61,574 nt of DNA from contig JAAXJX010000050.1 of the NCBI GenBank assembly GCA_012269595.1, positions 1,612 through 63,185 on the forward strand, given 5' to 3'. Under the pieces are notes generated by a model. That model was given only the letters and a program-made list of their open reading frames with translations. It did no database searches and was not told the origin of the DNA. How positions within the stretch are numbered: the first letter of the stretch is position 1; the number at the start of each line of letters is the position of its first letter. Below are positions 26,331-45,511 of the stretch, in pieces. The stretch is from Planctomycetia bacterium (lineage in GTDB: Bacteria; Planctomycetota; UBA8108; UBA1146). A program made the translations under genes and the position numbers.

Positions 26331-28775
26331 ATGGGGACGCAGAGATTCCCGGTAATCCTGATCGGTTTCCTGGGGGCCATGCTTTTGGCCACTGCTCCCG
26401 TGATTGCCCAGTCAGGGAATGAGACCTGTTCCTCTCCGGGCACGATCTTTGGCGGTGAGACGGGGACTCCCGTTTCGATTTCCGATTCGATCCAGATCAA
26501 CGACAGCCTGATTATCGAAGACCTGCACGTTCGGGTGGACATCAGCCATGGCTTTGTTGCCGATCTGCTCGTCGATCTGAATTCTCCGGCGGGCACGACT
26601 CTCCGGCTTCATGACGGCCTGGGAGGGGATCTCGATGATCTGCGGGTCATCTTCAGTGATGATGGCGTGGCCAACGGGGCGGTGACCTATGACTTCGGCT
26701 GTTACATGCAGCCATCGAACGGCCCCTTGAGTCTCTTCAGCGGTCAGAATACCCAAGGGCTGTGGACCTTGAACGTGCAGGATGATTTTCCGGCCAACAG
26801 TGATGGAGTCCTCAACAGCTGGTGCCTGCGATTCTTCAACTCGCCCGTCTCGGTTTTGCCGGCTGTGCAAAACTTTGCCTGCACTCCCACTCAGGACGGG
26901 GCTGCACTGTCCTGGGATAATCCCCAGGCCTACGGCTCCATCGAACTGACGGTCAACGGAACCGTGTTGTCATTACCGGGAAGCACGACGACTCACACCA
27001 TCAGTGGAGTTGCACCGGGAACCCTGCTGGAGATCTCTGTTGTTGGTGCATTGGCACTTCCCGGGCAATCGGTTTCCTGTGCGGAAGTCTGTGCTGTGAC
27101 CACCCTGAATGGCCCCCCGACCCAGGTGGCGGTGACCATCGATGAACAGTACGACGACTGGAGTGGGGTTACGCCGCTTCAGGATCCGGTCGGCGATGCG
27201 GTTCCCGGCGGCCACGATCTGCTGTCCCTTTCCGTGGCCGATGATGATGAGTCCCTGTTTCTTCGTTTCGATTTTGCCGGGCCGGAGGTGCAGCTCGATG
27301 AAGGGGACACACTGATTCTCTACATCGATACGGATGCCAATCCCAATACGGGGCTGGCCATCTCCGGGATCGGTGCCGAGGTGGAATGGGACTTTGGGGC
27401 CAGGCAGGGAACGGTGAGATCCGGGGGAGCGACCTTTCCGATCAGCCATGCGGATGTGGGCCTCGTCGCCGCACCCACTGTCTCTGGCACCGAGTTTGAA
27501 CTCAGCCTTCGCAGAAACTCGCCACTGATCTCACTGGGATCGGAGGTTCGGGTACTGCTGTGTGACGACCGACCCGGGGGAGATTGTCTTCCCGATTCAG
27601 GTGGCCTCTTTCACCCGCTGGCTCTGGGCCAATTGCCTCCGGATGCTGAGATCCCTCTGACCCGGGAGCAGGCATCAGATCTGCGGATCGTCAGTTACAA
27701 CGTCCTCACCGATAACCCGTGGCAAGGGCAGGGGAATCGGATTGGCCGACAGTTGGCGGCAGTGGCAGCGGACATTTACTGTTTTCAGGAGATCTACAAT
27801 CACACACCGGTTGAAACCGCTTCTTATGTGAGTTCATGGGTGAGCCCCAGCGGCGGCGGGAACTGGTTCAGTGCCGGTCAGTCCGACTGCATCTTTGTCA
27901 GCCGCTTCCCGATTTTGCAAACCTGGGCCCTGTCGGGGAACAGTGCGGCGTGGATCGATACCTCCAGTGAGTGGGGGGTACCGACGATGGTGATCAACGC
28001 CCACCTTCCCTGCTGTGCCAACGAATCGGGCCGGCAGAACGAATGTGATCAGATTGCCGCGTTCATCCGTGACCAGCGTTTGGCAGGGCTGCTTTCGACC
28101 CACCCGGAGGCGGCGGTGCTGATTCTGGGGGACATGAATTTTGTTGGCGAATCCCGTCAGCGGACGACCCTGTTGACCGGTGACATTCTCGACGAGACCC
28201 AATGGGGCTGGGACTACCCCATGGATTCGGATGGATCCGATCTCATCGATACCAAATCGCGTCATGTCGCCAAACGTCAGACCTACACCTGGCGCAACGA
28301 CAACGGCAGCTACTCCCCCGGTTATCTGGATTACATCATCTATTCCGATGCGGTTCTGGAACTGGGGCGTCATTTTGTGCTCCTGACCGATGAGATGTCG
28401 AACAGCTCACTGGTGCAGAATGGACTGCAGTTCGATGATTCCAGCGGGTCAGATCATCTGCTGGTGGCGGCGGATTTCCGCCCTCTGGCAGGTGGAGTGC
28501 TTTTCCGTCGGGGAGATTGCAATGGCGATGGATCTCTCAATATTTCGGATGCGGTCGCTTCCCTGCTCTCCCTCTTCGGCGGAGGGGCTCCTCCCAACTG
28601 TCAGGATGCCTGCGATGCGAACGACGATGGAACGCTGGATGTGTCGGATCCGGTGACGCTGCTGGGAATGCTCTTCTCCGGTTTTGGCGATCTGCCCGCA
28701 CCGGGACCCCAGAACTGTGGAGCAGATCCCACCAGCGATGCACTCGACTGCTCCACCTTCAGCGGTTGTCCCTGA
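26331..28775 (+). CDS. Secreted protein: proprotein-convertase P-domain, FN3-like, DOMON/CBM9-like, endonuclease/exonuclease/phosphatase domain, C-terminal dockerin-like domain
   Basis: P-domain (VDISH..VADL...SPAGT...GLWTL.V.D...G.L.SW); EEP motifs SYNV, FQEI, NAHL, GDMN, LDYI, SDH; tail FRRGDCNGDGSLNISD...DANDDGTLDVSD. Confidence 0.85.
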   Translation: MGTQRFPVILIGFLGAMLLATAPVIAQSGNETCSSPGTIFGGETGTPVSISDSIQINDSLIIEDLHVRVDISHGFVADLLVDLNSPAGTTLRLHDGLGGDLDDLRVIFSDDGVANGAVTYDFGCYMQPSNGPLSLFSGQNTQGLWTLNVQDDFPANSDGVLNSWCLRFFNSPVSVLPAVQNFACTPTQDGAALSWDNPQAYGSIELTVNGTVLSLPGSTTTHTISGVAPGTLLEISVVGALALPGQSVSCAEVCAVTTLNGPPTQVAVTIDEQYDDWSGVTPLQDPVGDAVPGGHDLLSLSVADDDESLFLRFDFAGPEVQLDEGDTLILYIDTDANPNTGLAISGIGAEVEWDFGARQGTVRSGGATFPISHADVGLVAAPTVSGTEFELSLRRNSPLISLGSEVRVLLCDDRPGGDCLPDSGGLFHPLALGQLPPDAEIPLTREQASDLRIVSYNVLTDNPWQGQGNRIGRQLAAVAADIYCFQEIYNHTPVETASYVSSWVSPSGGGNWFSAGQSDCIFVSRFPILQTWALSGNSAAWIDTSSEWGVPTMVINAHLPCCANESGRQNECDQIAAFIRDQRLAGLLSTHPEAAVLILGDMNFVGESRQRTTLLTGDILDETQWGWDYPMDSDGSDLIDTKSRHVAKRQTYTWRNDNGSYSPGYLDYIIYSDAVLELGRHFVLLTDEMSNSSLVQNGLQFDDSSGSDHLLVAADFRPLAGGVLFRRGDCNGDGSLNISDAVASLLSLFGGGAPPNCQDACDANDDGTLDVSDPVTLLGMLFSGFGDLPAPGPQNCGADPTSDALDCSTFSGCP

Positions 28776-29865: not shown

Positions 29866-32800
29866 ATGAAGATCTTTTCTGTAACGACATCCTATGTCGT
29901 ATCAAGCCTTGCCGCCTTCAAACGGCTCGGCCTTGTATTCGTGTTTGTATTTGTGTCTATGGGTATGTCCGGCACTCCGCTGACGGCGCAGAACTGTGAA
30001 ACAGGTTCTGAGACGTTGGCTGCATCGGCAACCCATGTGGACAACTCCGGTTCGTGGCTGGTTCGTGGCCAGGGCAGTGAGGTCGAGCTGTTACTCGAAG
30101 ATCAGGGAAGCTGGACATCCTTCCAGACTCTTGATCTGGGATTGCAGACTCTTCATTCGCTGGATCTGGATGGAACCTTGCTTGCCATCGGTCTGGGCAA
30201 TGAGGTCCGCATCCACAGTTATGACGGTACCAGCTGGGTCGAGGAGTTTGCCTTCGGGCCTGCTGATCCAGCAACGAGTTTCGGTCACAGCGTTGCCTTG
30301 TCCGGAAACCGACTGGCTGTGGGAGATCCAAACAGCAATACGATCACTTTCTACACGCGACTCTTCACCAGTGGGCAATCTGCTTCCTGGTTCACGAGTT
30401 CTACCAATACAGGATCTCCCGGAGGAACTCTGGGAGATGAGCTGGAAATGGTAGACGGCTACCTCGCCGCTGCTGACAGATCTCTGGGTTCCATTCAGGT
30501 ATTCGTTCCGGTGGGAAGTCCATCTCTGGAATGGGAAGCGGACTCCAGTCTGGCTCTGTCGAATGTTTCCGGATTCAGCCTCCATTCTTCTGGAGCTCAT
30601 CTGGATCTTTTGGTTCCTTCTGCTTCCGGTGCACAAATTTATCGTCGCGCTGGAGCCGGTTGGGATTTGCAGAGTGATTTGTCTTTCACTCCAGGAGCCA
30701 GACAGTACAGCGTTCTCTCCGCTGACAAGGCCGTCGTGACCACGGACTGTGGTCTGAGGCTCTACTCGCAGGAAGCGGGAGTATGGGATTCAGGTGTGGA
30801 ACTTCGCACTTTGGATGCTGCTGTGGCGTGCATGGACTTGCACGGAGCACAGGATGATTCTCCATTGGCCTTTGGTGATGCCGGAATTTTCCTGAGTACC
30901 GCCTCTGATCTGCGTCTGATTTCCGGATTGACCTACGCCGATTGCAATGGAAACGGATTACCCGATTCCTGTGATCTGGCTGCCGGAACTCCGGACTGCA
31001 ACGGCAATGGAATTCCTGACAGTTGCGACTTCGCCAATGGTGATCAGGATTGCAATGACAACGGCGTGATCGACATTTGTGAGATCAACAACGGATTTGC
31101 CCCTGATTGTAATGGAAATGGGATTCCGGACAGTTGCGACGCTCTCAATGGCGTTCAGTTTGATACCATTCCTCCGGTGATCGCCGGGGTTCCGGAAAAT
31201 CAGGACATTATTCTGAGCCCGGGTGTCTGTGCTGCGATTGCTGATTGGATAGAGCCGACTGCAACCGATATTTGCAGTAACGCCACCATTTCTTCGGATG
31301 TAGCTTTGGGTTCCGAGTTGTTCCCGGGTGTCAATACGATCACCTACACAGCCGAGGATGATCACGGCAACCAGTCCACCGCCAGTTTCACAGTGACGGT
31401 GACAGAGAATATTCCTCCGGTACTGGCGCAGTTGCCGATTGTCCCCGATTTTGCGGCGGACCCTCTGACCTGCACCGCGGTGGCGACCTGGGAAGAGCCG
31501 ACGGCAACGGACATCTGTTCCGATGTGACGATTACATCGAGCCATCCCAATGGGTCTGAGTTCCCCCTGGGAGAAACTCTGGTGGTCTTTACTGCGACGG
31601 ATGTCAGCGGAAACACTGACATCGATGGAATCATCATTCGCGTGGTCGACAACTCTGCACCCGTGATTGAGCAGTTGCCAAATATCGAGGTTTCTGCCCC
31701 CAACACTGCCTGTAATGCGACTGTTGACTGGATTGATCCGGTGATTACCGATTGCACACCAGGTGTGACGGTTACCCAAAATTTCCAGCAGCCCCTGATC
31801 GGCCTGCCGGGTATTCGCAATGTGACCTACACAGCCACAGATGCGAATGGTGTGTCATCTGCGATGACCTTTACGGTCAATATTGTTGACGATACTCCGC
31901 CGACTCTGGTGGGTTTGCCTGCGGATATGGTCCTTAACACTGACCCGGGTGCCTGTGGTGCCACGGTTCTTTGGGATCCGCCGACCGTGGTCGATAACTG
32001 CGATCTTGAACTGGAGCCTGTCAGTAACTTCGATCCTCCCTCCACCTTTGGTGTGGGTGTGACGACCGTGGTTTACACGGCCATCGACCCTTCCGGTAAC
32101 GAGAGGGTGGGTTCTTTCACGGTGACCGTGAATGACCTGGATATTCCTGTCTTCGTCAGTACCCCTGGACCGGTCTCTGCAGCGACCAGTACTACAGACT
32201 GTTCTGAGCCGGTGACCTGGAATCCGCCGGTGGCCGTCGACTGCTCCGCCAACCTCACCTACACCGCTTCTCATGATCCGGGAACCCCCTTCCCGTTGGG
32301 AACCACGGATGTCACTTACGAGGTTTCTGATCTTTCTGGCTTCTCGTCGACGATTACTTTCCCTGTGACGGTGACCGATGGATTCGGCCCGGAATTCCTG
32401 GGAGTGCCTGCAGACATCACTCAAGCGGTGACACCGGGTGAGTGCAGTTCTCTGGTGACATGGATCGAACCGACAGCTACTGATTCCTGTGGAACCTCCA
32501 CGATCAGTGGTTCCCATGCACCGGATACCGTCTTCCCTGTAGGAGTGACCCCGGTGACATACACGGCGATTGATGACAGTGGCAATGTCAGCACCGCGAC
32601 CTTCAATGTGACCGTGACCGATGGAAATGCACCAGCATTCAGCTCGGTGGTGGCCGATCAAAGTGCCACTGCTGCCATCGGAATCTGCCAGGCCCAGATC
32701 TTCTGGGATGAGCCTACAGCCACTGACGACTGTGCTGATGTTGTCATCACATCGTCCCATGCTTCCGGATCTTTCTTTGACAAGGGAGTCACGACGGTGA

Positions 32801-35800
32801 CTTACACCGCTTCCGATGGTGGCGGTGAAGTGGACCAGTTCTCATTCAACGTGACCGTGACCGACGTTGAGGCACCGAGTCTGCTCAACATGCCTGCAGA
32901 TATCACCGTGGGCAATGTTCCGGGTGCTTGTGCCAACACGGTCTTTTGGTTGACTCCGACTGCATTCGATCACTGCGAGCCAGTCGGATTTGCTGCGAGC
33001 CATGTTCCAGGAACCAGCTTCCCGGTCGGTCAGACCGAGGTGACTTACACCTCTACAGATTCTTCCGGAAACACAGCAAGCGCCAGCTTCATGATTCTCG
33101 TGGAGGATCGGGATGCCCCGACCTTTGTCGATACATTGCCGAGTTTGACGACGGTGATCGATCCGGGAACATGCGGAGCAGTGGTAACCTGGGCCGAGCC
33201 TTTGGCGTTGGATGCTTGTGATGCAGAATTGACCATCACTTCCAATCACCAGTCAGGTGACATCTTCCAGGTGGGAAGCACTCTGGTGACCTACACTGCT
33301 ACCGACGATTTCAATAACTCTACAAGCCTCTTCTTCAATGTGGTCGTGGAGGACAACGAAGGTCCAACGATTGTCGGGATTCCGCAGAGTTTCACTGCTG
33401 GAGTCGATGAAGGTGTTTGTGGTGCAACGGTGACATGGCAGGAGCCGGCACCTCTGGATTGCCAGTCGATGACAGTCCAAAAGAGCCATGATAATCCAGC
33501 CTTCCTTCCTCTGGGTGACACAACGGTGACTTACATCGTTACCGACGCCAGTGGAAATGCGACCACGGATTCATTTGTGATCACGGTTGTGGACGATCGT
33601 GCTCCGACATTCACGGCATTCCCTGAAAACATCTCGGTCTCCAACGACCCGGGAACCTGTGAGGCGATCGTGACCTGGGAGCCACTGCAGACGAGTGATC
33701 CCTGTTCGACCTCCTCATTTACCTTGAGTCACGAATCAGGATCGGTCTTCCCCCAAGGGGTGACGACCGTTACAGCGACCGCAGTGGACCTTTCTGGTAA
33801 CAGTCGTCAGCAGAGTTTTACCGTGAGTGTCCTTGATGGAGAGTCTCCGATTCTTCTGGAAGCACCCTCTGATCCGGTTTTCGTGGGTAACAGCACTCAA
33901 GAGTGTGATGCCGTCGCAAACTGGACCGTTCCTTCCTTCATCGACAACTGTGGTGGAGCAGTCACGGTCACTTCCAATCACCAGCCCGGTGATATCTTCC
34001 CGGTGGGAGAAACTCTTGTGAGTTACTCCGCTTTGGATGCGGACCTCAATGAGACGACTCACAGTTTCACGGTGATCGTTCTCGACACCACTGATCCGAC
34101 GGTGGAACAGCTGCCTGAAACGGTACATGTTTCAACGCCGGTCGATTCATGCTCAGCCACGGTCACATGGCCGGAGCCTGTTGCGACTGATTGTGGTCAA
34201 GTCACGGCTACCAGTGATTTTGCCAACGGCGCAGAGTTGGGTATCGGATCTCATATCATCACCTACACCTTCTCGGATGATTCAGGCAACAGCACGATGG
34301 GTTCTTTCCTCGTGGTTGTTTCTGATGGCGAGAATCCGACGATCTCGAATGTGCCTCAGGATGTGACGGTGACAAACACCACCTCCATGTGTGGGGTGAA
34401 CGTGATTTGGAGTGAACCCTCCACCAGTGACTGCACCTTCAGCAGCATGACTGCCAGTCACTCACCGGGAGACTTGTTCTCCACGGGTGTGACGGAGGTT
34501 CAGTACACCTCAACCGATACCGAGGGTAACCAGTCGACAGCCAGTTTCCTGGTCACAGTTCTGGATGGTGAAAGTCCGCAGATCATTGATATGCCCACCG
34601 ATATCACGGTGACCGCAGATCTGGGATCTTGTCAGGCAGCAGCCACTTGGGGCGACCCGCAGGCCATCGATTGTGTGTCTGCTGATTTGGCCTCCTCACA
34701 TCTTTCCGGAAGCCTTTTCGATATCGGTACGACTGAAGTGATCTACACAGCCACCGATACCGCAGGAAACTCCTCGCAGGCATCATTCCACGTGACAGTG
34801 ATCGATCAGGAAGCACCGCAAATCGCAAACATGCCGGATACGGTGATCGTCCAAAACAGCCCGGGCCTGTGCACCGGTGTAGCCATTTGGTCTGAACCGA
34901 GTGGAACCGACTGTTCCGGAATCGCATCCATCACGCCCTCGATTTCTTCGGGGTCCGAGTTCCCGGTGGGAACCACCACTGTGTTCTACAGCGTGATTGA
35001 CAACAGTGGTCTCGAGTCTGTGGCCAGTTTCCTCGTTGAGGTTCAGGACACAGAAGCGCCGACAATCCTCAATCTGCCTGGAACGGTAACGGTTTCCAAC
35101 ATCGCTGGTAACTGCTCTGGCCCGGCAACCTGGGAGACGCCTTCCACCGAAGATTGCTCGGGTTCCTTCATCACTTCTGACTACAGCAGCGGGCAAATGT
35201 TTGCGCTGGGAAGCACCACCGTTACCTACACGGCAATGGATGAATGGGGCAATAGCAGTCAGTCCAGCTTTGAGGTGATTGTTGAGGATACGGAATCACC
35301 CTTCTTCACGAATCTTCCGGCGACGATGACCTTCTCAAGTACATTGGGTACCTGTGAGGGATTGGCAACATGGCCGATGCCCACGGCGGCGGACCTCTGT
35401 AGTGCAGCTGCAGACGTCACCGTTACTTCCAGCCACGATTCTGGATCCGTATTTGCTATCGGAGATCACACAGTGGTCTTCACCGCAACGGATGCCAGCG
35501 GTAATGAACATGCACAGTTGGTGACGATCAGCATTATCGATATCGAGCCGCCGACGATCAGCGACATGCCTACAGACCTTGTGGGTACAGCGTTAATCGG
35601 CGAGTGCGGAGTACCGATGTCCTGGAATCCGCCTGCGACCTCAGACTGTTCGGATGTCACTCTCACCAGCACATTCAGTTCCGGTGACCTGATTCCGATT
35701 GGTTTGAATACCATTACCTACACAGCCACAGACAGTGCTGGTAACTCTTCCAGCTCTTCCTTCTTCATTAATGTTGCCGACGCGGAAGCGCCGACCATCA

Positions 35801-36795
35801 GCAACTTGCCCGAAAATGTGATTTTGACCAATGACTTCGATTCCTGTGGAGCAATCCATTCATGGGTTGAGCCGACCATTGAGGACTGCAGTGATCTGAT
35901 GCCCATCAGCATTTCTCACAGCAGTGGCACATTCTTTGAGCCGGGTATCACTGAAGTCTCTTACTCTGCGACCGATTTCTACGGTAACTCCACAACACAG
36001 AGCTTCACGGTCAATGTTGTTGACAAGGATGGTCCCCAGTTCCTGAACGTGGTTTCCTACGTTGAGTTGAACAACTATCCCGGTCTTTGCGGCGCAAATG
36101 CGTTCTGGCCAGAGCCGACGGTGGTCGACAACTGTGAAGTATCCAGTCTGCAGTCCACCGTTGAGCAGGGTGATTTCCTGCCGTTGGGTGAAACAGTGGT
36201 CAACTACGTGGCCATCGACAGTGAAGGCAATGCCAATACGGCCTCGATCACGATCAATGTCATCGACAATGAGGCGCCGCAGGTAATCAACCTTCCGGCT
36301 CACATCTTCGCCGAGCCGGATCCGTCAACCTGTACAGCGATCGTGACCTGGCAGGCTCCGGAAATCTCCGACAACTGCGACGGCGGCACGATCACCAGTT
36401 CGCATGAATCTGGAACAGAGTTTGAGGTAGGAACGCACACCGTGACCGTCATCGCGACCGACGCAGTTGGATTTGTGACGGAAGTCAGCTTCCAGGTCAC
36501 GGTCAATGAGTGCGGAGTGTCCTTCATTCGCGGTGACACCAACAATGACGGTGCCTACGACATCTCTGACGCGATTGGAATCCTCCAGTACATCTTTGGC
36601 GGGGCCATGACCGATCCGACCTGTCTCGATTCGCTGGATGAGAATGACGACGGCATGATCTCGATTGCGGATGCGATTTACCACTTCTCCCACCTCTTCT
36701 CGGGTGGTCCTGCTCCGGCAGCACCTTTCGACAGTTGTGGAGTCGACATGACTGCTGATGATCTGGGTTGCGAGAGCTACGGCGTCTGCCCCTGA
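29866..36795 (+). CDS. Giant secreted protein: degenerate FG-GAP propeller, 4 DCNxNGxxDxC repeats, 22 HYR domains, C-terminal dockerin-like domain
   Basis: Signal peptide; FGHSVALSGNRLAVG; repeats of about 80 aa D..P...C...W.EP...DC...SG..FP.G.T.VTYTATD..GN...F.V.V (22 counted); tail FIRGDTNNDG..DISD...DENDDG.I.IAD. Confidence 0.9.
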   Translation: MKIFSVTTSYVVSSLAAFKRLGLVFVFVFVSMGMSGTPLTAQNCETGSETLAASATHVDNSGSWLVRGQGSEVELLLEDQGSWTSFQTLDLGLQTLHSLDLDGTLLAIGLGNEVRIHSYDGTSWVEEFAFGPADPATSFGHSVALSGNRLAVGDPNSNTITFYTRLFTSGQSASWFTSSTNTGSPGGTLGDELEMVDGYLAAADRSLGSIQVFVPVGSPSLEWEADSSLALSNVSGFSLHSSGAHLDLLVPSASGAQIYRRAGAGWDLQSDLSFTPGARQYSVLSADKAVVTTDCGLRLYSQEAGVWDSGVELRTLDAAVACMDLHGAQDDSPLAFGDAGIFLSTASDLRLISGLTYADCNGNGLPDSCDLAAGTPDCNGNGIPDSCDFANGDQDCNDNGVIDICEINNGFAPDCNGNGIPDSCDALNGVQFDTIPPVIAGVPENQDIILSPGVCAAIADWIEPTATDICSNATISSDVALGSELFPGVNTITYTAEDDHGNQSTASFTVTVTENIPPVLAQLPIVPDFAADPLTCTAVATWEEPTATDICSDVTITSSHPNGSEFPLGETLVVFTATDVSGNTDIDGIIIRVVDNSAPVIEQLPNIEVSAPNTACNATVDWIDPVITDCTPGVTVTQNFQQPLIGLPGIRNVTYTATDANGVSSAMTFTVNIVDDTPPTLVGLPADMVLNTDPGACGATVLWDPPTVVDNCDLELEPVSNFDPPSTFGVGVTTVVYTAIDPSGNERVGSFTVTVNDLDIPVFVSTPGPVSAATSTTDCSEPVTWNPPVAVDCSANLTYTASHDPGTPFPLGTTDVTYEVSDLSGFSSTITFPVTVTDGFGPEFLGVPADITQAVTPGECSSLVTWIEPTATDSCGTSTISGSHAPDTVFPVGVTPVTYTAIDDSGNVSTATFNVTVTDGNAPAFSSVVADQSATAAIGICQAQIFWDEPTATDDCADVVITSSHASGSFFDKGVTTVTYTASDGGGEVDQFSFNVTVTDVEAPSLLNMPADITVGNVPGACANTVFWLTPTAFDHCEPVGFAASHVPGTSFPVGQTEVTYTSTDSSGNTASASFMILVEDRDAPTFVDTLPSLTTVIDPGTCGAVVTWAEPLALDACDAELTITSNHQSGDIFQVGSTLVTYTATDDFNNSTSLFFNVVVEDNEGPTIVGIPQSFTAGVDEGVCGATVTWQEPAPLDCQSMTVQKSHDNPAFLPLGDTTVTYIVTDASGNATTDSFVITVVDDRAPTFTAFPENISVSNDPGTCEAIVTWEPLQTSDPCSTSSFTLSHESGSVFPQGVTTVTATAVDLSGNSRQQSFTVSVLDGESPILLEAPSDPVFVGNSTQECDAVANWTVPSFIDNCGGAVTVTSNHQPGDIFPVGETLVSYSALDADLNETTHSFTVIVLDTTDPTVEQLPETVHVSTPVDSCSATVTWPEPVATDCGQVTATSDFANGAELGIGSHIITYTFSDDSGNSTMGSFLVVVSDGENPTISNVPQDVTVTNTTSMCGVNVIWSEPSTSDCTFSSMTASHSPGDLFSTGVTEVQYTSTDTEGNQSTASFLVTVLDGESPQIIDMPTDITVTADLGSCQAAATWGDPQAIDCVSADLASSHLSGSLFDIGTTEVIYTATDTAGNSSQASFHVTVIDQEAPQIANMPDTVIVQNSPGLCTGVAIWSEPSGTDCSGIASITPSISSGSEFPVGTTTVFYSVIDNSGLESVASFLVEVQDTEAPTILNLPGTVTVSNIAGNCSGPATWETPSTEDCSGSFITSDYSSGQMFALGSTTVTYTAMDEWGNSSQSSFEVIVEDTESPFFTNLPATMTFSSTLGTCEGLATWPMPTAADLCSAAADVTVTSSHDSGSVFAIGDHTVVFTATDASGNEHAQLVTISIIDIEPPTISDMPTDLVGTALIGECGVPMSWNPPATSDCSDVTLTSTFSSGDLIPIGLNTITYTATDSAGNSSSSSFFINVADAEAPTISNLPENVILTNDFDSCGAIHSWVEPTIEDCSDLMPISISHSSGTFFEPGITEVSYSATDFYGNSTTQSFTVNVVDKDGPQFLNVVSYVELNNYPGLCGANAFWPEPTVVDNCEVSSLQSTVEQGDFLPLGETVVNYVAIDSEGNANTASITINVIDNEAPQVINLPAHIFAEPDPSTCTAIVTWQAPEISDNCDGGTITSSHESGTEFEVGTHTVTVIATDAVGFVTEVSFQVTVNECGVSFIRGDTNNDGAYDISDAIGILQYIFGGAMTDPTCLDSLDENDDGMISIADAIYHFSHLFSGGPAPAAPFDSCGVDMTADDLGCESYGVCP

Positions 36796-39900: not shown

Positions 39901-40318
39901 AGTGAAACCGGAACTGATTCTCGATGTATTGAGAGCCTGTGAAGAGTCCGGCTCCGAGTCTTTGCTGGAGCGTGCGCTCTCCAAAAGAATGGGGACCGAT
40001 GAGGATCGGGTTGCCGACCATTTCTGGGCACTCGCAGGGGGCAATGCAGTCAGGGGACAGAAGGTTTTTACAGAGCACCCGGCGGCCCAGTGTCTTCGGT
40101 GTCACCAGAGAGATGGAAATGGGGGGGTTTCCGGACCTGGTCTGGACGGACTCAGGGATCGCCGGGACCGGCGTCATATTCTGCAAAGCATCGTCGATCC
40201 ATCCGCCGAAATCTCCGAGGGGTACAGTGCCGAAAATGGCCTCTCTGCCATGCCGGAAGTGCACTGGATTCTGGAACCGGAGGAGATCCGCGACCTGCTG
40301 GAATATCTCGGGAGTTAA
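36917..40318 (+). CDS. PVC-type heme-binding protein (dehydrogenase-like propeller, HEAT repeats, cytochrome c)
   Basis: GGAGGA RBS; GHDMHGL..GPDGRIYFSIGDRG, GLRNPQEL.F...G; HEAT-like D....VR; G...RG..VF...AQCLRCH...GPGL and SAMP. Confidence 0.88.
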   Translation: MMVANWVLILSLLAFSQDGSTEAAADSSLQPWPQGALEALERIRTPEGVSKRIIAAGPLVRDPVAFAVDHRGRAYVCESERQEYGVEDNRSSPFWLQDDLALQTVDDRLAMYEKHKDRRLDGMGYYSAREDRLTCLSDEDGDGIMDTVKPFTDPFAEPLDGTLAGVLVDEGTAWITNIPHLWIATDENQDGQAESRRSAQRGFGVRIALRGHDMHGLVRGPDGRIYFSIGDRGFYLQTADGRLLHDAGSGAVFRCEPDGSALEVVHVGLRNPQELAFNDFGDLFTGDNNSDAGDRARIVQILPGGETGWRMEYQTLEGGNQRGPWNQEGIWQVEHPLRPRWASPPITYLGSGPSGLVYHPGTGFRSDLAGSFFMCDFRGDPAASLLWRFRLEPDGAGYRLSEKEKFIEGVLCTDVDFTPNGALWISAWGGGWVSTDRGRLFEFTDSDGLRPPVEMGVQDLLTRNDLDSFAADNLAGAVTLENWLGSADRRVRQRIQNHLASGGEKEADLLVSIARGGKSATENLLGRIHAIWGLEQWTRRNPGDQGQRLLSLASLEGDPHEEVRRQLARVIGDGAGTRGKSVLIRLLEDPSPRVRSSAALALAKLGVPEAREDFFRIGLEAAADDPVLHHSAVMALAGSCTEAELLLEGLSRDSSKERRMLALLALRKKHHPWWLFSGKQGNVDVAATERTEPFDPADLLQSGLRYKLNETGLTLARPVAPSLAHFLNDADPEIVAEAARAIHDLDCTEAMTPLADLLIQWSKMPAEEVAAMGDWIWPTGRRVIDAAQRHGGARHLMALVEFAGRTEAPDGLRRLALQAAAEWDSPPSREGVRGLVRPVEPEQRPQDFVPREVIEAPLGPLLKTGSLKGVALKVALVHGIELDPSINRTVLESAEQTAEFRIQALEQLQTAISAEELAVILKPLVGKGEASLQLRMGEALQAESDRPTYLMNTYEQGGELSLRQLAIRRLAQQYSDKAGVVDWLVRQLDRLDQGEVKPELILDVLRACEESGSESLLERALSKRMGTDEDRVADHFWALAGGNAVRGQKVFTEHPAAQCLRCHQRDGNGGVSGPGLDGLRDRRDRRHILQSIVDPSAEISEGYSAENGLSAMPEVHWILEPEEIRDLLEYLGS

Positions 40319-40403
40319 TGGATTGACTTCGTTAACAAACCGGTTTACAAACATGGGCGTCCCAATGACCCAATTTTCCCGAGTTGGGCCTTTCATTGCT
40401 TTG

Positions 40404-40514
40404 GACACTCTTGGGAACAGTCGTGGCCATCTATTGAACCTCTTCCGGGTCCCTCACTCCTCACTCCACTTAACCCGGGAGTGGTGTTCTTTGTCATGAC
40501 TGTTCCCAAGGGTC
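40404..40514 (+). ncRNA. Candidate structured RNA: long hairpin with CU-rich loop upstream of the cohesin gene
   Basis: 18-bp stem 40410-40427 / 40493-40510 with two G.U pairs; inner 9-bp stem 40442-40450 / 40473-40481 with one G.U pair. Confidence 0.45.
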
Positions 40515-40956
40515 ATAATCCCGCCAGTTAAGCCTTGTCTGTCGGGAAAGGCAGGTCCGGCAACTTTCTCATCGGGTGGTTGGCAAGGACCGATAAGTCG
40601 ATACAATCAGAGTTGCTCGGGCTCGAGAATTTGATCAAAAGAGGACACTTTGCGGGTTTCCGTTATGGGAACTTCTCCGTGTCATTCTGAGGTCGATTGG
40701 GGCTTTCCCAGACGGTCGAGAGCCTCGAGGAGGTGGGAAGGTGTGCGTCGCGGAGACTTCCGGTCCCCCGGCGTGCACTTCATTTTCTTCCTGCCAGGTA
40801 TGGACAGGTATAGACGCTGAAAACATGAACCCTGTGAGCGATTTATCCGACGAGGTGTGTCGGTGCGGTATATCAGGGTCTGGAAAAACAAGACAACTTT
40901 AATGGGGTGTGTCGGGGCGACAAGCCCTGGAGTGAGACCGAAAGGAACACACGATT

Positions 40957-42204
40957 ATGCTTCGATCGATGATGATCATGCTGACCATTGCAATGGCAGT
41001 TTCTTTTGTGCCTGCAGTTGCTATTGCGGGCGGTAGTGCATTTCAGTTCAGCCTGACTGGCGGTGCCGGTGCAGCAGGTGACAGCTTCACCTCTTCTGCA
41101 CTTTTGGACAACGCCGGTGGTGGAGACATTCAGGGTTGGTCCTTCGGTGTCTGCAGTGACCCTGCAGCCCTGACCGTAGACGGAGCCGCCAGCGGTGCCG
41201 ACACGGAGACCTCCAAGAACGGATCTGCTCCTGACTTCAACCAGATCAGTACTTTTGCTGACGGTGCCACCCAGGGTGTGGTTCTCTGTTTCACCGGCTG
41301 TGCCGTGATCGGAGACACCTCCGGTTTCGAGATGCTGACGATCGATTACACGATCGCCGGTTCCTCTGACACCACCATCGACTACTGCGGAACCCTGGGA
41401 GCTCCCCCGGTGAACACCGTGGTCGTGGTTGGCGGAGCCAGCCTTGCTCCCGCTACCAGTGGTGGATTGATCGACGTGATCAACCCGAACCAGTTGAGCG
41501 CCTCCAGTGGAACTGCCGTCCTCGGTGACGCCGCTTCCACCACCGTGAGCTTCAATAACGTCAACTACCCGGCCATCGACGCCGTTCAGATCAACCTTGG
41601 ATACGACAACACCGTCGTTTCCCCGGCTTCTGTCGACGCCGATTTCGCCTTCGAGACCTTCCTGGTTCAGGACTTCACCGGCAATGGCGGTGAGATTGTT
41701 GTTGGCGGCCTTGCTGACATCACTCCTCCCCTGGACGGACTGATTCCGGCCGGTGCCTCCACCGACCTCTTCACCGTGACCTGGAACACCGACGGCGAGG
41801 GTACCTCCGCCATGACCTTCCCGGCCACCGCAGGTAGCCCGGCTCAGGATCTTCTCTTCGTTGCTGGTCAGTCCAGCCTGGAGACCCCGACCCTGATCGA
41901 CGGTTCCCTGACCGTGGTGAACTTCAACCAGTTCCTGCGTTCCGACTGCAACAATGACGGAACCGTCAACATTGCTGACGGTGTTTACGGTATCAACTAC
42001 CTCTTCCAGGGTGGTGCTGATCCGGTCTGTGACGACGCCTGTGACTCCAATGACGACGGTGCCATCGACGCCGCCGACATGATCTACATCTTCAACTACC
42101 GCTTCCTTGAGGGCCCGGCTCCGCTGGCACCCTTCCCGAGTGCGGACCTCGACCCGACCCCGGGCGACGGACTGGGATGTGACGGCGACGCCGACGATCT
42201 GTAG
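40957..42204 (+). CDS. Secreted protein with two cohesin-like domains and a C-terminal dockerin-like domain
   Basis: AAAGGA RBS; signal peptide; domain 1 LDN...IQGWSFGVCSD..L; domain 2 VSFNN...IDAVQINLGYD...LFTVTW...DGSLTV; tail FLRSDCNNDGTVNIAD...DSNDDGAIDAAD. Confidence 0.75.
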   Translation: MLRSMMIMLTIAMAVSFVPAVAIAGGSAFQFSLTGGAGAAGDSFTSSALLDNAGGGDIQGWSFGVCSDPAALTVDGAASGADTETSKNGSAPDFNQISTFADGATQGVVLCFTGCAVIGDTSGFEMLTIDYTIAGSSDTTIDYCGTLGAPPVNTVVVVGGASLAPATSGGLIDVINPNQLSASSGTAVLGDAASTTVSFNNVNYPAIDAVQINLGYDNTVVSPASVDADFAFETFLVQDFTGNGGEIVVGGLADITPPLDGLIPAGASTDLFTVTWNTDGEGTSAMTFPATAGSPAQDLLFVAGQSSLETPTLIDGSLTVVNFNQFLRSDCNNDGTVNIADGVYGINYLFQGGADPVCDDACDSNDDGAIDAADMIYIFNYRFLEGPAPLAPFPSADLDPTPGDGLGCDGDADDL

Positions 42205-42223
42205 AAATCACTGATTTCGAAAC

Positions 42224-42263
42224 AAAGAAGGCCGCTCGATCGATGATCGAGCGGCCTTTTTTC
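42224..42263. terminator. Probably bidirectional intrinsic terminator between the cohesin gene and hemL
   Basis: AAGGCCGCTCGATC / GATCGAGCGGCCTT stem, T-run on the right and A-rich on the left. Confidence 0.85.
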
Positions 42264-42294
42264 TTGTGTATTTTTGAAGTGATACCGAAGTGTT

Positions 42295-43611
42295 TCAAAG
42301 TTTCAGTTTGCCGATGGCCTCAGCAGTGAATTCGATATCTTCGGCAGTGTGTGCGAGTGAGACAAAGCCCGCTTCATACGAAGAGGGGGCGATGGCCACA
42401 CCTTCGGCGAGCAAGCCGTGGAAGAACTTCTTGAACAGCTCCACATCTCCCTGAGAGGCGTCATGAAAGTTGTTCACCGTTTTCGCAGTGAAGAAGAGGC
42501 CGAACATCGATCCGACCCGATGCCATGAGTGGGGGATGCCATGCTGGTCCAGAGCCTCTTTCCACAGCTGGTGCAGTTGGGCTGAACGCTGATCCAGAGT
42601 GTTGTAGATCTCGTCTGAATCACTGTGCAGCCGCTTGAGCAGGGCGATTCCAGCGGCCACCGATAGCGGATTGCCACTGAGGGTTCCCGCCTGATAGACC
42701 GCACCGGTCGGAGAGAAATGCTCCATATATTTCTGGGGACCGCAGACGACCCCCATGGGCATGCCACCACCGACAATTTTGCCCAGAGTGGTCAGGTCAG
42801 GAGTGACCCCGAGCAGACCTTGTGCGCATTGGGGGCTGACCCGGAAACCGGTCATGACCTCGTCAAAGACGAGCAGGGATCCATGTTTGTCACACAGTGC
42901 TCTCAGTCCCTCAAGAAATCCTTCAACGGGCGGAACGCAGCCCATGTTGCCCGCGATCGGCTCGACGAAGATGGCCGCCACATCCGATCCGTGTTCCTGC
43001 ATGAGGGATTCCACTGCAGCCAGGTCATTGAAGGGGGCAACCAGGGTCAGGTTGGCAGTGGCCTCGGGAACACCCGGGCTCGACGGATGGCCATGGGTTG
43101 CTGCACCGGATCCTGCGGCCACAAGGAAAGAATCCCCGTGTCCGTGGTAGCAGCCTTCAAACTTGATGAAGAGTGATCGGCCGGTGATGCCCCGTGCCAA
43201 TCGCAATGCGGACATCGTCGCCTCGGTTCCACTGGAGGTCAGGCGAGCCATTTCTGCGGACGGAACCATATCGACGATCAGCTCCGCGATTTCTACCTCT
43301 GCGGCAGTGGGAGCTCCAAAGGAGGTGCCATGGACAGCGGTCCTGGCGATCGCCTCCAGAATCTCCGGATGGGCATGGCCCAGAATCATGGGGCCCCAGG
43401 AGCCGACGAAGTCGATGTACTCCCGGTTGTCTTCATCGAGGATTCGGCAGCCTTTGGCGGAGCGGATGAAGCGGGGAGTTCCCCCCACAGATCCAAAGGC
43501 GCGGACGGGGCTGTTGACCCCCCCGGGAATCAGCTTTTTTGCGCGGTCGAAGAGGGACTGGTTACCGAGACCGGCGACATCGTTGAGTGATTCACTGTCA
43601 TTGACGTTCAT
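42295..43611 (-). CDS. hemL: Glutamate-1-semialdehyde 2,1-aminomutase
   Basis: IPGGVNSPVRAF, SGTEATMSA, GCYHGH.D, FDEVMTGFR, GKIVGGG, YQAGTLSGNP; start reassigned to MNVND. Confidence 0.97.
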   Translation of the reverse strand: MNVNDSESLNDVAGLGNQSLFDRAKKLIPGGVNSPVRAFGSVGGTPRFIRSAKGCRILDEDNREYIDFVGSWGPMILGHAHPEILEAIARTAVHGTSFGAPTAAEVEIAELIVDMVPSAEMARLTSSGTEATMSALRLARGITGRSLFIKFEGCYHGHGDSFLVAAGSGAATHGHPSSPGVPEATANLTLVAPFNDLAAVESLMQEHGSDVAAIFVEPIAGNMGCVPPVEGFLEGLRALCDKHGSLLVFDEVMTGFRVSPQCAQGLLGVTPDLTTLGKIVGGGMPMGVVCGPQKYMEHFSPTGAVYQAGTLSGNPLSVAAGIALLKRLHSDSDEIYNTLDQRSAQLHQLWKEALDQHGIPHSWHRVGSMFGLFFTAKTVNNFHDASQGDVELFKKFFHGLLAEGVAIAPSSYEAGFVSLAHTAEDIEFTAEAIGKLKL

Positions 43612-43801
43612 CGTGCTCTCCCTGCTGTCAATTTCCGGAAGTATATCCGCCACCGCTTCGAGGGGTACCCACACTACGCAGGCAGAGAGTAAAGAAGCAA
43701 GAGCACAGCGGTCCTCCCACTCCTGAAATCTGTACGGGAAAGAATGGCAACTACCTCTGGTTCGGGGGGGTGGATACGATGCGGGGCGAAAAGGGGTTGA
43801 A

Positions 43802-45511
43802 ATGAAACTGATACTTTTGGTGATGGTCTTTCTGCTGGTCAGTGCCCGGGTTTGTGGCGGGGGTGATCGGGTTTTCGGTCTGCCTCTGGCTACCCGTTCT
43901 CCTGCTCTGGCCAAAAATGGCATGGCCGCGACGAGTCAGCCGTTGGCCACGGATGCGGCCCTCGACATTCTCAAGGCCGGGGGTAATGCCATCGATGCTG
44001 CCATCGCTGCCAATGCCTGTCTCGGATTGATGGAGCCGACCGGCTGCGGCATCGGCGGCGACCTCTTTGCCATCGTCTGGGACGCGGAGGAGGGCAAACT
44101 TCATGGTTACAACGGTTCCGGAAGATCTCCGGGGAGTTTGACTCTGGAAAAGCTGAAGGAAGAACTCTCCGATCGCGGTCTGGATGAGATTCCGGCCCAT
44201 GGAACCCTGCCCATCTCCGTTCCGGGTTGTGTGGACGGCTGGGTCAGCCTTCATGAAAAGTTTGGAAAACTGCCCCTTGAGAAAGTGCTGGAGCCGGCGA
44301 TTCGGCATGCCCGCGAGGGATTCCCTGTCTCGCAGGTGATCGCTTACTACTGGCAGGCCAGTGTTCGCAAACTCGAGCCGCAGCCAGGGTTCATGGAGAC
44401 ATTCACCCGCAACGGCCGTGCTCCTGTGGAAGGAGAGCTGTGGAAGAACCCAGACCTCGCGCAGAGTTACGAGCGGATTGCCAAAGAGGGTCGTGCCGGT
44501 TTCTACGAAGGTGAAGTGGCCGAGAGGATGGCCCGCTTTGTTCAAGAGCATGGTGGCTTTCTCACGGTGGAGGATCTCACTTCCCACCGGGGAGAGTGGG
44601 TCGAGCCGGTGAGCACCAACTATCGCGGTGTAGACGTCTGGCAGCTGCCCCCCAACGGGCAAGGCCTCGCTGTCTTGCAGATCCTCAACATCATGGAGGG
44701 GTATCCGGTAAGGGATTGGGGCTTCGGCAGTACAGAGCTGTTGCATCACTTCATCGAAGCGAAAAAACAGGTTTTCGAGGATCGTGCCCGGGATTACGTC
44801 GATCCGGAATTTCACAAGGTGCCGATCAGGGATCTGATCTCCAGGGAGAGAGCCGATCTGCAAAGAAGTGCCATCTCCCCAGAGAAGGCAGCCCGCTCCA
44901 TCGATACCGGCAGAGCCCAAACCCGAGATGGGGACACGGTCTACCTGTCCGTAGCAGACTCGGATGGAAACATGATCTCGCTGATCCAAAGCAACTATCG
45001 CGGAATTGGCAGTGGCGTTTGCCCTCCGGGGCTCGGGTTTGGCTTGCAGGACAGGGGTGAGCTTTTCTCACTGGATAAAGAGCATGCCAACGTCTACGAA
45101 CCTGGAAAGCGTCCTTTTCACACCATCATTCCCGGCTTTGCCTTCCGCGACGGAAAGCCCTGGCTTTCATTCGGAGTGATGGGAGGGGCAACCCAGCCCC
45201 AGGCCCAGGCATGGGTCTTGATGAACATGATCGATTTCGACATGAATCTGCAAGAAGCGGGGGACGCTCCCAGAGTTGTTCATGTCGGTTCTTCACAGCC
45301 CACCGGTTATGTCATGAAGGATGGTGGAGAGGTGGCCATCGAAAGCGGCGTCTCTGCAGAAGTTGTCGCCGAGTTGGAGAAACGGGGGCACGTGATTTCC
45401 AAAAAGCGGGGACTCTTTGGTGGATACCAGGCCGTGATGCGCGATCTCGAACACGGCACGTGGGTTGGAGCCAGTGAATCGAGAAAGGATGGCCATGCGG
45501 CAGGGTATTGA
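43802..45511 (+). CDS. ggt: Gamma-glutamyltranspeptidase family protein (secreted)
   Basis: GGNAIDAAIA, GIGGDLF, LPPNGQG, nucleophile GDT-VY, GKRPFHTIIP, GVMGG..QPQ. Confidence 0.92.
   Translation: MKLILLVMVFLLVSARVCGGGDRVFGLPLATRSPALAKNGMAATSQPLATDAALDILKAGGNAIDAAIAANACLGLMEPTGCGIGGDLFAIVWDAEEGKLHGYNGSGRSPGSLTLEKLKEELSDRGLDEIPAHGTLPISVPGCVDGWVSLHEKFGKLPLEKVLEPAIRHAREGFPVSQVIAYYWQASVRKLEPQPGFMETFTRNGRAPVEGELWKNPDLAQSYERIAKEGRAGFYEGEVAERMARFVQEHGGFLTVEDLTSHRGEWVEPVSTNYRGVDVWQLPPNGQGLAVLQILNIMEGYPVRDWGFGSTELLHHFIEAKKQVFEDRARDYVDPEFHKVPIRDLISRERADLQRSAISPEKAARSIDTGRAQTRDGDTVYLSVADSDGNMISLIQSNYRGIGSGVCPPGLGFGLQDRGELFSLDKEHANVYEPGKRPFHTIIPGFAFRDGKPWLSFGVMGGATQPQAQAWVLMNMIDFDMNLQEAGDAPRVVHVGSSQPTGYVMKDGGEVAIESGVSAEVVAELEKRGHVISKKRGLFGGYQAVMRDLEHGTWVGASESRKDGHAAGY

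Follow-up and report, generated by a model that had tools for sequence, protein, structure and literature searches.

A conserved two-cohesin, one-dockerin protein of a marine planctomycete as a probable adaptor-scaffoldin-like connector

Anaerobic fibre degraders are the organisms in which cohesin-dockerin assembly has chiefly been characterised, and the dockerin of Archaeoglobus fulgidus binds a cohesin of its own protein. Adaptor scaffoldins are described in a review as proteins that link scaffoldins or enzymes (PMC12484212), anaerobic methanotrophic (ANME) archaea are reported to have proteins that combine a single dockerin with as many as five cohesins (PMC9012536), and a hypothetical 'planctosome' composed of cohesin/dockerin, P-domain, HYR, LTD and M12B parts is outlined for planctomycetes on the basis of freshwater Nemodlikiaceae (PMC6461901, Andrei et al. 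2019). The general idea of a planctomycete cohesin/dockerin network is already published as a hypothesis, and in a mostly title-level search of the literature on cohesins and dockerins in marine Planctomycetota no description beyond PMC6461901 was found. Here, a 415-residue protein (the target) is compared with these systems. It is encoded in a 61,574-nt stretch of contig JAAXJX010000050.1 (assembly GCA_012269595.1, positions 1,612 to 63,185 of the forward strand; this whole stretch is called the window), which belongs to a marine Planctomycetota metagenome-assembled genome (MAG) of 2.8 Mb and 93% completeness. The target carries two cohesin-fold domains (Coh1 and Coh2) followed by a dockerin, and it is probably an abundant, secreted, non-catalytic, adaptor-scaffoldin-like connector in a network of the 'planctosome' type.

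Like the target, for which export is predicted, the cellulosomal adaptor scaffoldins (ScaC and ScaH of Ruminococcus flavefaciens and ScaB of Acetivibrio cellulolyticus; cohesin structures 5lxv and 4uyp) are secreted, non-catalytic proteins with one or more cohesins and a C-terminal dockerin. Their solved cohesin and dockerin modules match the three folds of the target, which itself shows what marks an adaptor scaffoldin (at least one cohesin together with a dockerin, and no catalytic module), and a hierarchy of anchor, adaptor and cargo appears plausible in the target genome too. However, the host is a planktonic marine planctomycete and not an anaerobic fibre degrader, no glycoside hydrolase occurs among the listed cargo families of its genome, the candidate anchors are putative lipoproteins and not SLH or sortase proteins, the dockerins have conserved cysteine pairs and a C-terminal tail, and nearly every cohesin protein also carries a dockerin, the system being known here from sequence and models. 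A cellulosome has plant-cell-wall glycoside hydrolases as cargo and a cellulose-binding scaffoldin, and no glycoside hydrolase or carbohydrate-binding module is among the cargo families listed here; by analogy, the target would work like a cellulosome part and is not one. The 'planctosome', as outlined in PMC6461901, is likewise planctomycete and non-cellulolytic, and its P-domains, HYR, lamin-tail domain and M12B are also found in the target genome; its model, itself hypothetical, includes an LTD-anchored protein of 2,210 aa and a dockerin-HYR-cohesin adaptor, and a small subunit with two cohesins and a dockerin, a 47-member cohesin set and lipoprotein anchors are no part of that description. 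The non-cellulosomal archaeal proteins, among them the ANME proteins of PMC9012536, resemble the target in that a single chain, which is not an enzyme and has no part in cellulose degradation, bears both cohesin(s) and a dockerin, and they differ from it in domain of life and cell envelope; the A. fulgidus cohesin 2xdh matches Coh2 at a VIA Z of 16.3.

The fold of the target was modelled with AlphaFold2 on a 43-row homolog alignment (A1), which gave a mean predicted local distance difference test score (pLDDT) of 86.8 and a predicted template modelling score (pTM) of 0.61, with values below 50 confined to the signal peptide (Table 1). When this model was compared with the PDB by Foldseek, the type II cohesin dyad 3l8q was returned first (E 1.3e-11), followed by many single cohesins with template modelling (TM) scores on the target of about 0.8. 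In VIA, the modelled Coh2 (residues 176-323) superposed on type I cohesins (root-mean-square deviation (rmsd) 1.8 Å over 135 residues, 6kgc_A) and the modelled Coh1 (residues 23-176) on type II/III cohesins (2.8 Å over 136 residues, 5aoz; also 5m0y), both thus being placed on the nine-stranded jelly-roll beta-sandwich of solved cohesins. Pfam Cohesin (PF00963) was found in two stretches of the target (E 3.3e-7, 31 bits against a cut-off of 24.1), the best of them at residues 188-233 within Coh2, and Dockerin_1 (PF00404) at residues 329-378 (E 1.8e-5, 25.2 bits against a cut-off of 22.9); Pfam gave no family beyond these two above its cut-off, and NCBIfam gave none for the target. Coh1 contains four conserved Cys (66, 110, 114 and 144). 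All 390 mature residues (26-415) lie inside the three modules, and therefore no room is left for a catalytic domain. An earlier note, made from the letters of the window alone, had described at this open reading frame (ORF), recovered here with the same coordinates and strand, a protein with two cohesins, one dockerin and no catalytic domain; Pfam, AlphaFold2, VIA and Foldseek agree with that description, the cohesin fold being upheld both by the Foldseek matches in the PDB and by the superposition of the two domains, so that the anatomy appears correct at the level of sequence and modelled fold.

The same superpositions bear on whether the target might itself be cargo, with beta-sandwich domains that bind a non-protein ligand (a polysaccharide, or a mineral or Ca) and a dockerin that just tethers them. 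Cohesins and carbohydrate-binding modules share the jelly-roll architecture, and the 50 acidic against 3 basic residues of the mature target would favour cation binding, but cohesins or cohesin-containing constructs make up the first 45 entries of the VIA table, in which another fold does not appear until Z 11.2, the Pfam Cohesin match lies above its cut-off, and acidity runs through the whole cohesin/dockerin set and its enzymes. This role is quite improbable and is regarded as one of two lesser rivals to the connector.

The dockerin (C-terminal 92 residues) was also modelled alone, on a 40-row alignment (A4) of the dockerins of the source genome and its orthologs, and the model reached a pLDDT of 90.4 and a pTM of 0.81. 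The best Foldseek matches of this model were solved type I dockerins, with Doc48S (2mte) at TM 0.77, rmsd 1.7 Å over 63 columns, 30% identity and E 1.8e-3; the E-values are modest, as such a small domain leads one to expect, and the 30 rows listed through rank 35 were all dockerins or dockerin-containing chains. By phmmer, the solved dockerins 2mte, 1daq, 2y3n_B and 3ul4_B were matched at E 5e-4 to 8e-4, values similar to those reached by EF-hand proteins. Two Ca-loop repeats of the pattern D-x-N-x-D-G...D were read from the sequence (residues 329-340 and 363-374), and each is followed by a helix in the 92-residue model (16-27 and 49-60); calcium binding is expected of them. Equivalents of Cys358 and Cys408 are present in 40 of the 40 aligned dockerins, a 'CG' cysteine and a terminal Cys occur together in 28, are both absent from 12 and never occur singly (0/40), and Cys331 and Cys362 occur together in 12, are absent from 26 and occur singly in 2, which suggests that the co-occurring cysteines form disulfides, the predicted pairs in the target being Cys331-Cys362 and Cys358-Cys408. 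The target is one of those without the 'CG' and terminal cysteines, and its lack of the 'CG' and terminal 'C(P)' cysteines borne by both cargo proteins of the window, which the earlier note had pointed out, was confirmed by the alignment and by our own hidden Markov model (HMM).

Possible partners were sought in the genome at large. Pfam models gave 63 dockerin and 5 cohesin matches, and a larger inventory was obtained with HMMs built on the family's own domains: 123 frames in total are devoted to cohesin/dockerin, 76 with a dockerin only and 47 with cohesin-like domains, 42 of which also have a dockerin (CD 20, CCD 17, CCCD 4, DCD 1). The target, as one of these 42, is not unique in the genome. 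Five of the cohesin frames have no dockerin. Contig ends interrupt two of these, a third (with PKD repeats) is truncated at its N-terminus, and the other two lie on contig C29. The families listed by Pfam at E <= 1e-5 for dockerin-only frames (the first 25 of 30 in set 1 and all 22 in set 2) were FG-GAP-type repeats (8), P_proprotein (6/76), CCP_MauG di-haem peroxidases (4), subtilase (2), HYR (1-2) and LTD (1), with single cases of penicillin amidase, endonuclease I, EEP nuclease and lectin, cadherin-like and esterase families; no glycoside hydrolase or carbohydrate-binding module family was listed for the 76 frames at this threshold. P_proprotein, HYR and LTD are, together with an M12B reprolysin that carries cohesin and dockerin, the parts by which the hypothetical 'planctosome' set is recognised. 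Large peptidases of the M4 thermolysin-like, trypsin-like and M12B reprolysin-like kinds carry one or two cohesins and then a dockerin at their C-terminal ends, so these enzymes can be both plug and socket. Ten cohesin/dockerin genes (CCD, CCCD and CD) stand in tandem on contig C59 (89-22484) and are the closest paralogs of the target.

The two frames on C29 are adjacent He_PIG-repeat proteins with a C-terminal cohesin, no dockerin and, as read by eye, lipobox-type signals, and they are candidates for outer-membrane anchors. A homolog of the anchor candidate occurs in 17 of 18 same-family genomes, and the lipoboxes are kept, together with the three-gene cluster, in a 56%-identical ortholog (L108). 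This cluster (C29 16478-22617; L016, L017, L105) consists of the two He_PIG-repeat genes and then a cohesin+dockerin gene. The frame at C49:63134-67276 (L015), whose N-terminus is cut by the contig end, has at least 15 PKD repeats and a C-terminal Coh1-type cohesin, and no dockerin. The inference of an adaptor scaffold in the earlier note fits this genome, with its 76 dockerin-only cargo frames and its two dockerin-less cohesin proteins, putative lipoproteins, as candidate anchors.

The connector would work as follows. The N-terminus of the target, read by eye, runs from MLR through a hydrophobic run to A-I-A followed by G, and cleavage is expected after A-I-A; the protein would be exported by Sec and its signal peptide removed. 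Its Ca-binding, disulfide-stapled dockerin would then plug into a cohesin on another protein, which may be a paralog or an anchor whose cohesin sits on a lipoprotein or a stalk, and Coh1 and Coh2 would be the sockets for dockerin-tagged secreted peptidases, nucleases and adhesin-like repeat proteins. In this way a planktonic marine planctomycete would keep such cargo on its cell surface.

The spacing of the domains allows a different arrangement, in which the dockerin lies against the neighbouring Coh2 of its own chain to give a stable structural cassette or an auto-inhibited tag. No more than 0-10 residues separate the dockerin from the last cohesin, in the target (330/331) as well as in the majority of the 42 cohesin+dockerin frames, the same cassette ends the large peptidases, and the pTM of the three-domain chain is compatible with some fixed inter-domain packing. 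A cis-closed unit is nevertheless unlikely and is the other lesser rival: a spacer of about 180 residues lies between cohesin and dockerin in about ten frames, and the 76 dockerin frames that have no cohesin would still need a partner in trans.

Relatives of the target are widespread. Database searches gave 104 relatives close to it in length, each either unnamed or annotated 'hypothetical' and all from marine Planctomycetota MAGs, and a 1.84-billion representative library gave 200 matches at E <= 1e-30 and 25,477 at E <= 1e-3, the weaker ones mostly to the dockerin alone. A match at E <= 1e-76 was present in 18/18 same-family genomes, a full-length top match of 46-99% identity being shown for 17 of them and the best listed match in G010 covering residues 27-415 at 42%; members of the family were found in 31/31 genomes searched, up to class level. 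The order HYR giant, DUF7133-HEAT-cytochrome c gene, target, aminotransferase and GGT gene is kept in eight of nine orthologous loci, in all eight of which the HYR giant is syntenic with the target, and the ninth is too short to show gene order. The target is under purifying selection, with a ratio of nonsynonymous to synonymous substitution rates (dN/dS) of 0.09-0.16, and its dockerin and tail are the slowest-evolving parts (77-95% identity among orthologs where the cohesins have 50-93%). Compared with L004, L006 and L007, the dockerin part (41926-42144) has a dS of 0.46-0.50 and the cohesin parts 1.0-2.0; the low dockerin dS, about half or less of that of the cohesins, may reflect codon constraint or recombination.

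Within the genome, the target was compared with 11 paralogs having both domain types (Coh2 being scored in 10), and identity was 38-61% for Coh1, 40-60% for the dockerin and 21-35% for Coh2. That Coh1 and the dockerin are far better kept than Coh2 would be expected of a shared backbone contact with variable cargo sockets, that is, of a self-polymerising lattice or filament, the model of the earlier note, in which each dockerin would engage a cohesin on a further copy or on a close paralog, and the subunits would chain head-to-tail or branch to give an S-layer-like coat whose spare cohesin displays cargo. Such a lattice would also accord with the one plug and two sockets of each protein, the dockerin in 42/47 cohesin frames, a codon adaptation index (CAI) in the top 1% and the Coh1-type cohesin that ends the dockerin-less PKD-stalk protein, and a coat bearing trypsin-like peptidases would be well served by having hardly any Lys/Arg. 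Yet one shared anchor and one shared ligand explain the conservation of Coh1 and dockerin equally well, characterised adaptor scaffoldins generally have a dockerin and cohesins of differing specificity, as the review also indicates (PMC12484212), no S-layer or SLH family domain was found in the target by Pfam or NCBIfam, and self-binding is conjecture. A complex prediction for the cohesin pair (residues 27-323) with its own dockerin (324-415) gave ipSAE values of 0.06 and 0.01, where the mark is 0.32; it was run without controls and counts neither way. The lattice is therefore held to be possible and clearly less probable than the connector. A particular form of it is offered with reserve, as a rather doubtful proposal: Coh1 and the scaffold-type dockerin would be a conserved head-to-tail pair by which about a dozen paralogs polymerise together as a filament or coat. 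This coat, attached to the outer membrane through cohesins on lipoproteins or a PKD stalk, would be nearly free of Lys/Arg/His and so resistant to the trypsin-like peptidases it carries, with the fast-diverging Coh2 displaying about 76 dockerin-tagged enzymes and adhesins. If such a head-to-tail coat were true, a free-living marine bacterium would have a modular enzyme-bearing surface layer.

For the connector, a high abundance is suggested by the codons. GGT is used for 26 of 52 Gly, GAC for 38 of 43 Asp, ACC for 29 of 36 Thr, TTC for 20 of 23 Phe and AAC for 17 of 21 Asn, which is the bias reported in the earlier note. With 23 ribosomal-protein/EF-G genes of contig C5 as reference, the CAI of the target is 0.823 (rank 20 among 2008 crude ORFs), the highest among the small non-catalytic cohesin-dockerin frames (next, 0.782), and the target is the most codon-adapted of the dozen or so subunits of this kind. 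Contigs from RNA libraries of three studies cover nearly the whole gene (40914-42146 in X4, 40624-42195 in X5 and 40691-42190 in X9) and end at 42146-42195; the word depth of the target's contig in X4 is 49 against 3.5-7.8 for neighbouring contigs, and X5 and X9 give little cover outside the target gene. As to the high abundance that had been claimed, the codon adaptation and the RNA-library contigs are in its favour, and the contigs cannot rank expression.

The composition of the target is extreme. Its mature part has 1 Lys, 2 Arg and no His, exactly as had been counted before, with 43 Asp and 7 Glu (pI about 4.05). The Lys+Arg+His fraction of the target (0.96%) is the third lowest among the 2008 ORFs (median 12.8%), and its side-chain nitrogen of 0.106 per residue has rank 7 (median 0.369), in keeping with the cheapness in nitrogen claimed for it. 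Because Lys/Arg are nearly absent, the predicted tryptic peptides are of 62, 241, 54 and 33 aa, and standard tryptic metaproteomics would probably miss the target, as the earlier note had also held; an abundant ocean protein could be hidden by this. The scarcity of basic residues is not special to the target and extends to the cohesin/dockerin set as a whole: nearly all of the 30 ORFs poorest in Lys+Arg+His are members of that set.

Several points weigh against the connector or narrow what supports it. A dockerin in 42 of 47 cohesin frames is unlike the classical hierarchical scaffoldin systems, and a daisy-chain network or a cis-packed unit would account for this pattern no less well. The partners named for the target are candidates read from sequence, none of them being assigned, and a partner signal sought in the conservation of the anchors between the source genome (G000) and G007 gave nothing notable (cohesins against stalks, 0.66 against 0.53 and 0.79 against 0.80). 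The signal peptide and the lipoboxes were read by eye. The CAI and composition ranks are approximate, as the 2008 ORFs were gathered by crude rules (an ATG start, a length of 120 aa or more, and greedy non-overlap). Of the four RNA runs, X12 gives even cover over the whole stretch and may contain DNA, and contig depth and missing cover cannot rank expression and show just presence in RNA libraries.

The features of the locus and of the related peptidase genes are collected in Table 1.

Table 1. Coordinates of the target gene, its parts, flanking elements and related genes (positions in the window unless a contig is named)
Feature	Position	Strand	Basis and remarks
Target ORF	40957-42204	+	ATG start, 415 aa
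Signal peptide (putative), residues 1-25	40957-41031	+	Sequence read by eye; pLDDT <50 over 1-25
Cohesin-fold domain 1 (Coh1), residues 26-176	41032-41484	+	VIA Z 13.6 (5aoz), 13.2 (5m0y); alignment motifs conserved
Cohesin-fold domain 2 (Coh2), residues 177-323, type-I-like	41485-41925	+	VIA Z 18.1 (6kgc_A)
Dockerin, residues 324-396	41926-42144	+	Ca-loop repeats D329-D340, D363-D374; Pfam, phmmer, Foldseek
Dockerin tail, residues 397-415, single Cys408, and stop codon	42145-42204	+	
Promoter-like site TTGGCA-N16-TACAAT	40580-40607	+	Consensus scan; putative function
Leader (about 350 nt, conserved), with AAGGAA as ribosome-binding stretch immediately upstream of the ATG	40608-40956	+	
Terminator-like hairpin	42224-42262	+	18-pair stem, 9 G-C, then T run; also on minus strand
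Candidate cargo: P-domain and endonuclease/exonuclease/phosphatase (EEP), C-terminal three-Cys-tail dockerin	26331-28775	+	Pfam; 844-aa frame
Candidate cargo: HYR-repeat protein, C-terminal three-Cys-tail dockerin	29866-36795	+	Pfam HYR, 21 stretches; 2309 aa (2314-aa frame)
Peptidases with cohesin(s) and dockerin (L018-L021)	C7:39076-43881, C39:17103-21422, C28:2726-7636, C1:10648-13377		

The dockerins of the two candidate cargo proteins in the window were located, also by our own HMM, at 28512-28649 (P-domain/EEP neighbour) and 36532-36675 (HYR giant). Upstream of the target, 638 nt are non-coding, and the next gene downstream, which encodes an aminotransferase, is convergent and shares the hairpin; therefore a single-gene transcription unit is plausible. 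Of the monocistronic gene with a strong terminator that the earlier note had described, a terminator-like hairpin was found, and the monocistronic unit is made plausible by the gene layout. The promoter-like element and the leader are conserved in orthologous loci down to 57% protein identity: the element is kept in six of the seven loci searched (L001, L004-L007 and L009; it was not found in L008), and blocks of the leader, including repeated GGTGTG(T/C)CG-like motifs, are invariant across six orthologous loci. A search of 40200-42400 against Rfam gave no family for the leader and just two sub-threshold chance matches, on the terminator hairpin, and a consensus fold of the leader from five sequences (56 pairs, compensatory change in 6, covariation term +0.32) showed no convincing covariation. 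The downstream gene, a class-III aminotransferase (hemL-like; 42295-43923, minus strand), has just 38-43% identity to its positional counterpart in L004-L007 and L009, where the genes on its two sides have 53-83%, and it may have been replaced by a distant homolog; its ORF includes a long, probably untranslated N-terminal extension.

A planktonic marine planctomycete with a 2.8-Mb genome gives 123 frames to cohesin/dockerin, with peptidases, nucleases and adhesin-like proteins as cargo, and not cellulases. The target is a conserved member of this set and the most codon-adapted of those that are non-catalytic, and as a defined, small and expressible protein it offers a means of testing the published 'planctosome' idea. 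If the network is true, free-living cells would retain their secreted enzymes on the surface, as against losing them to seawater.

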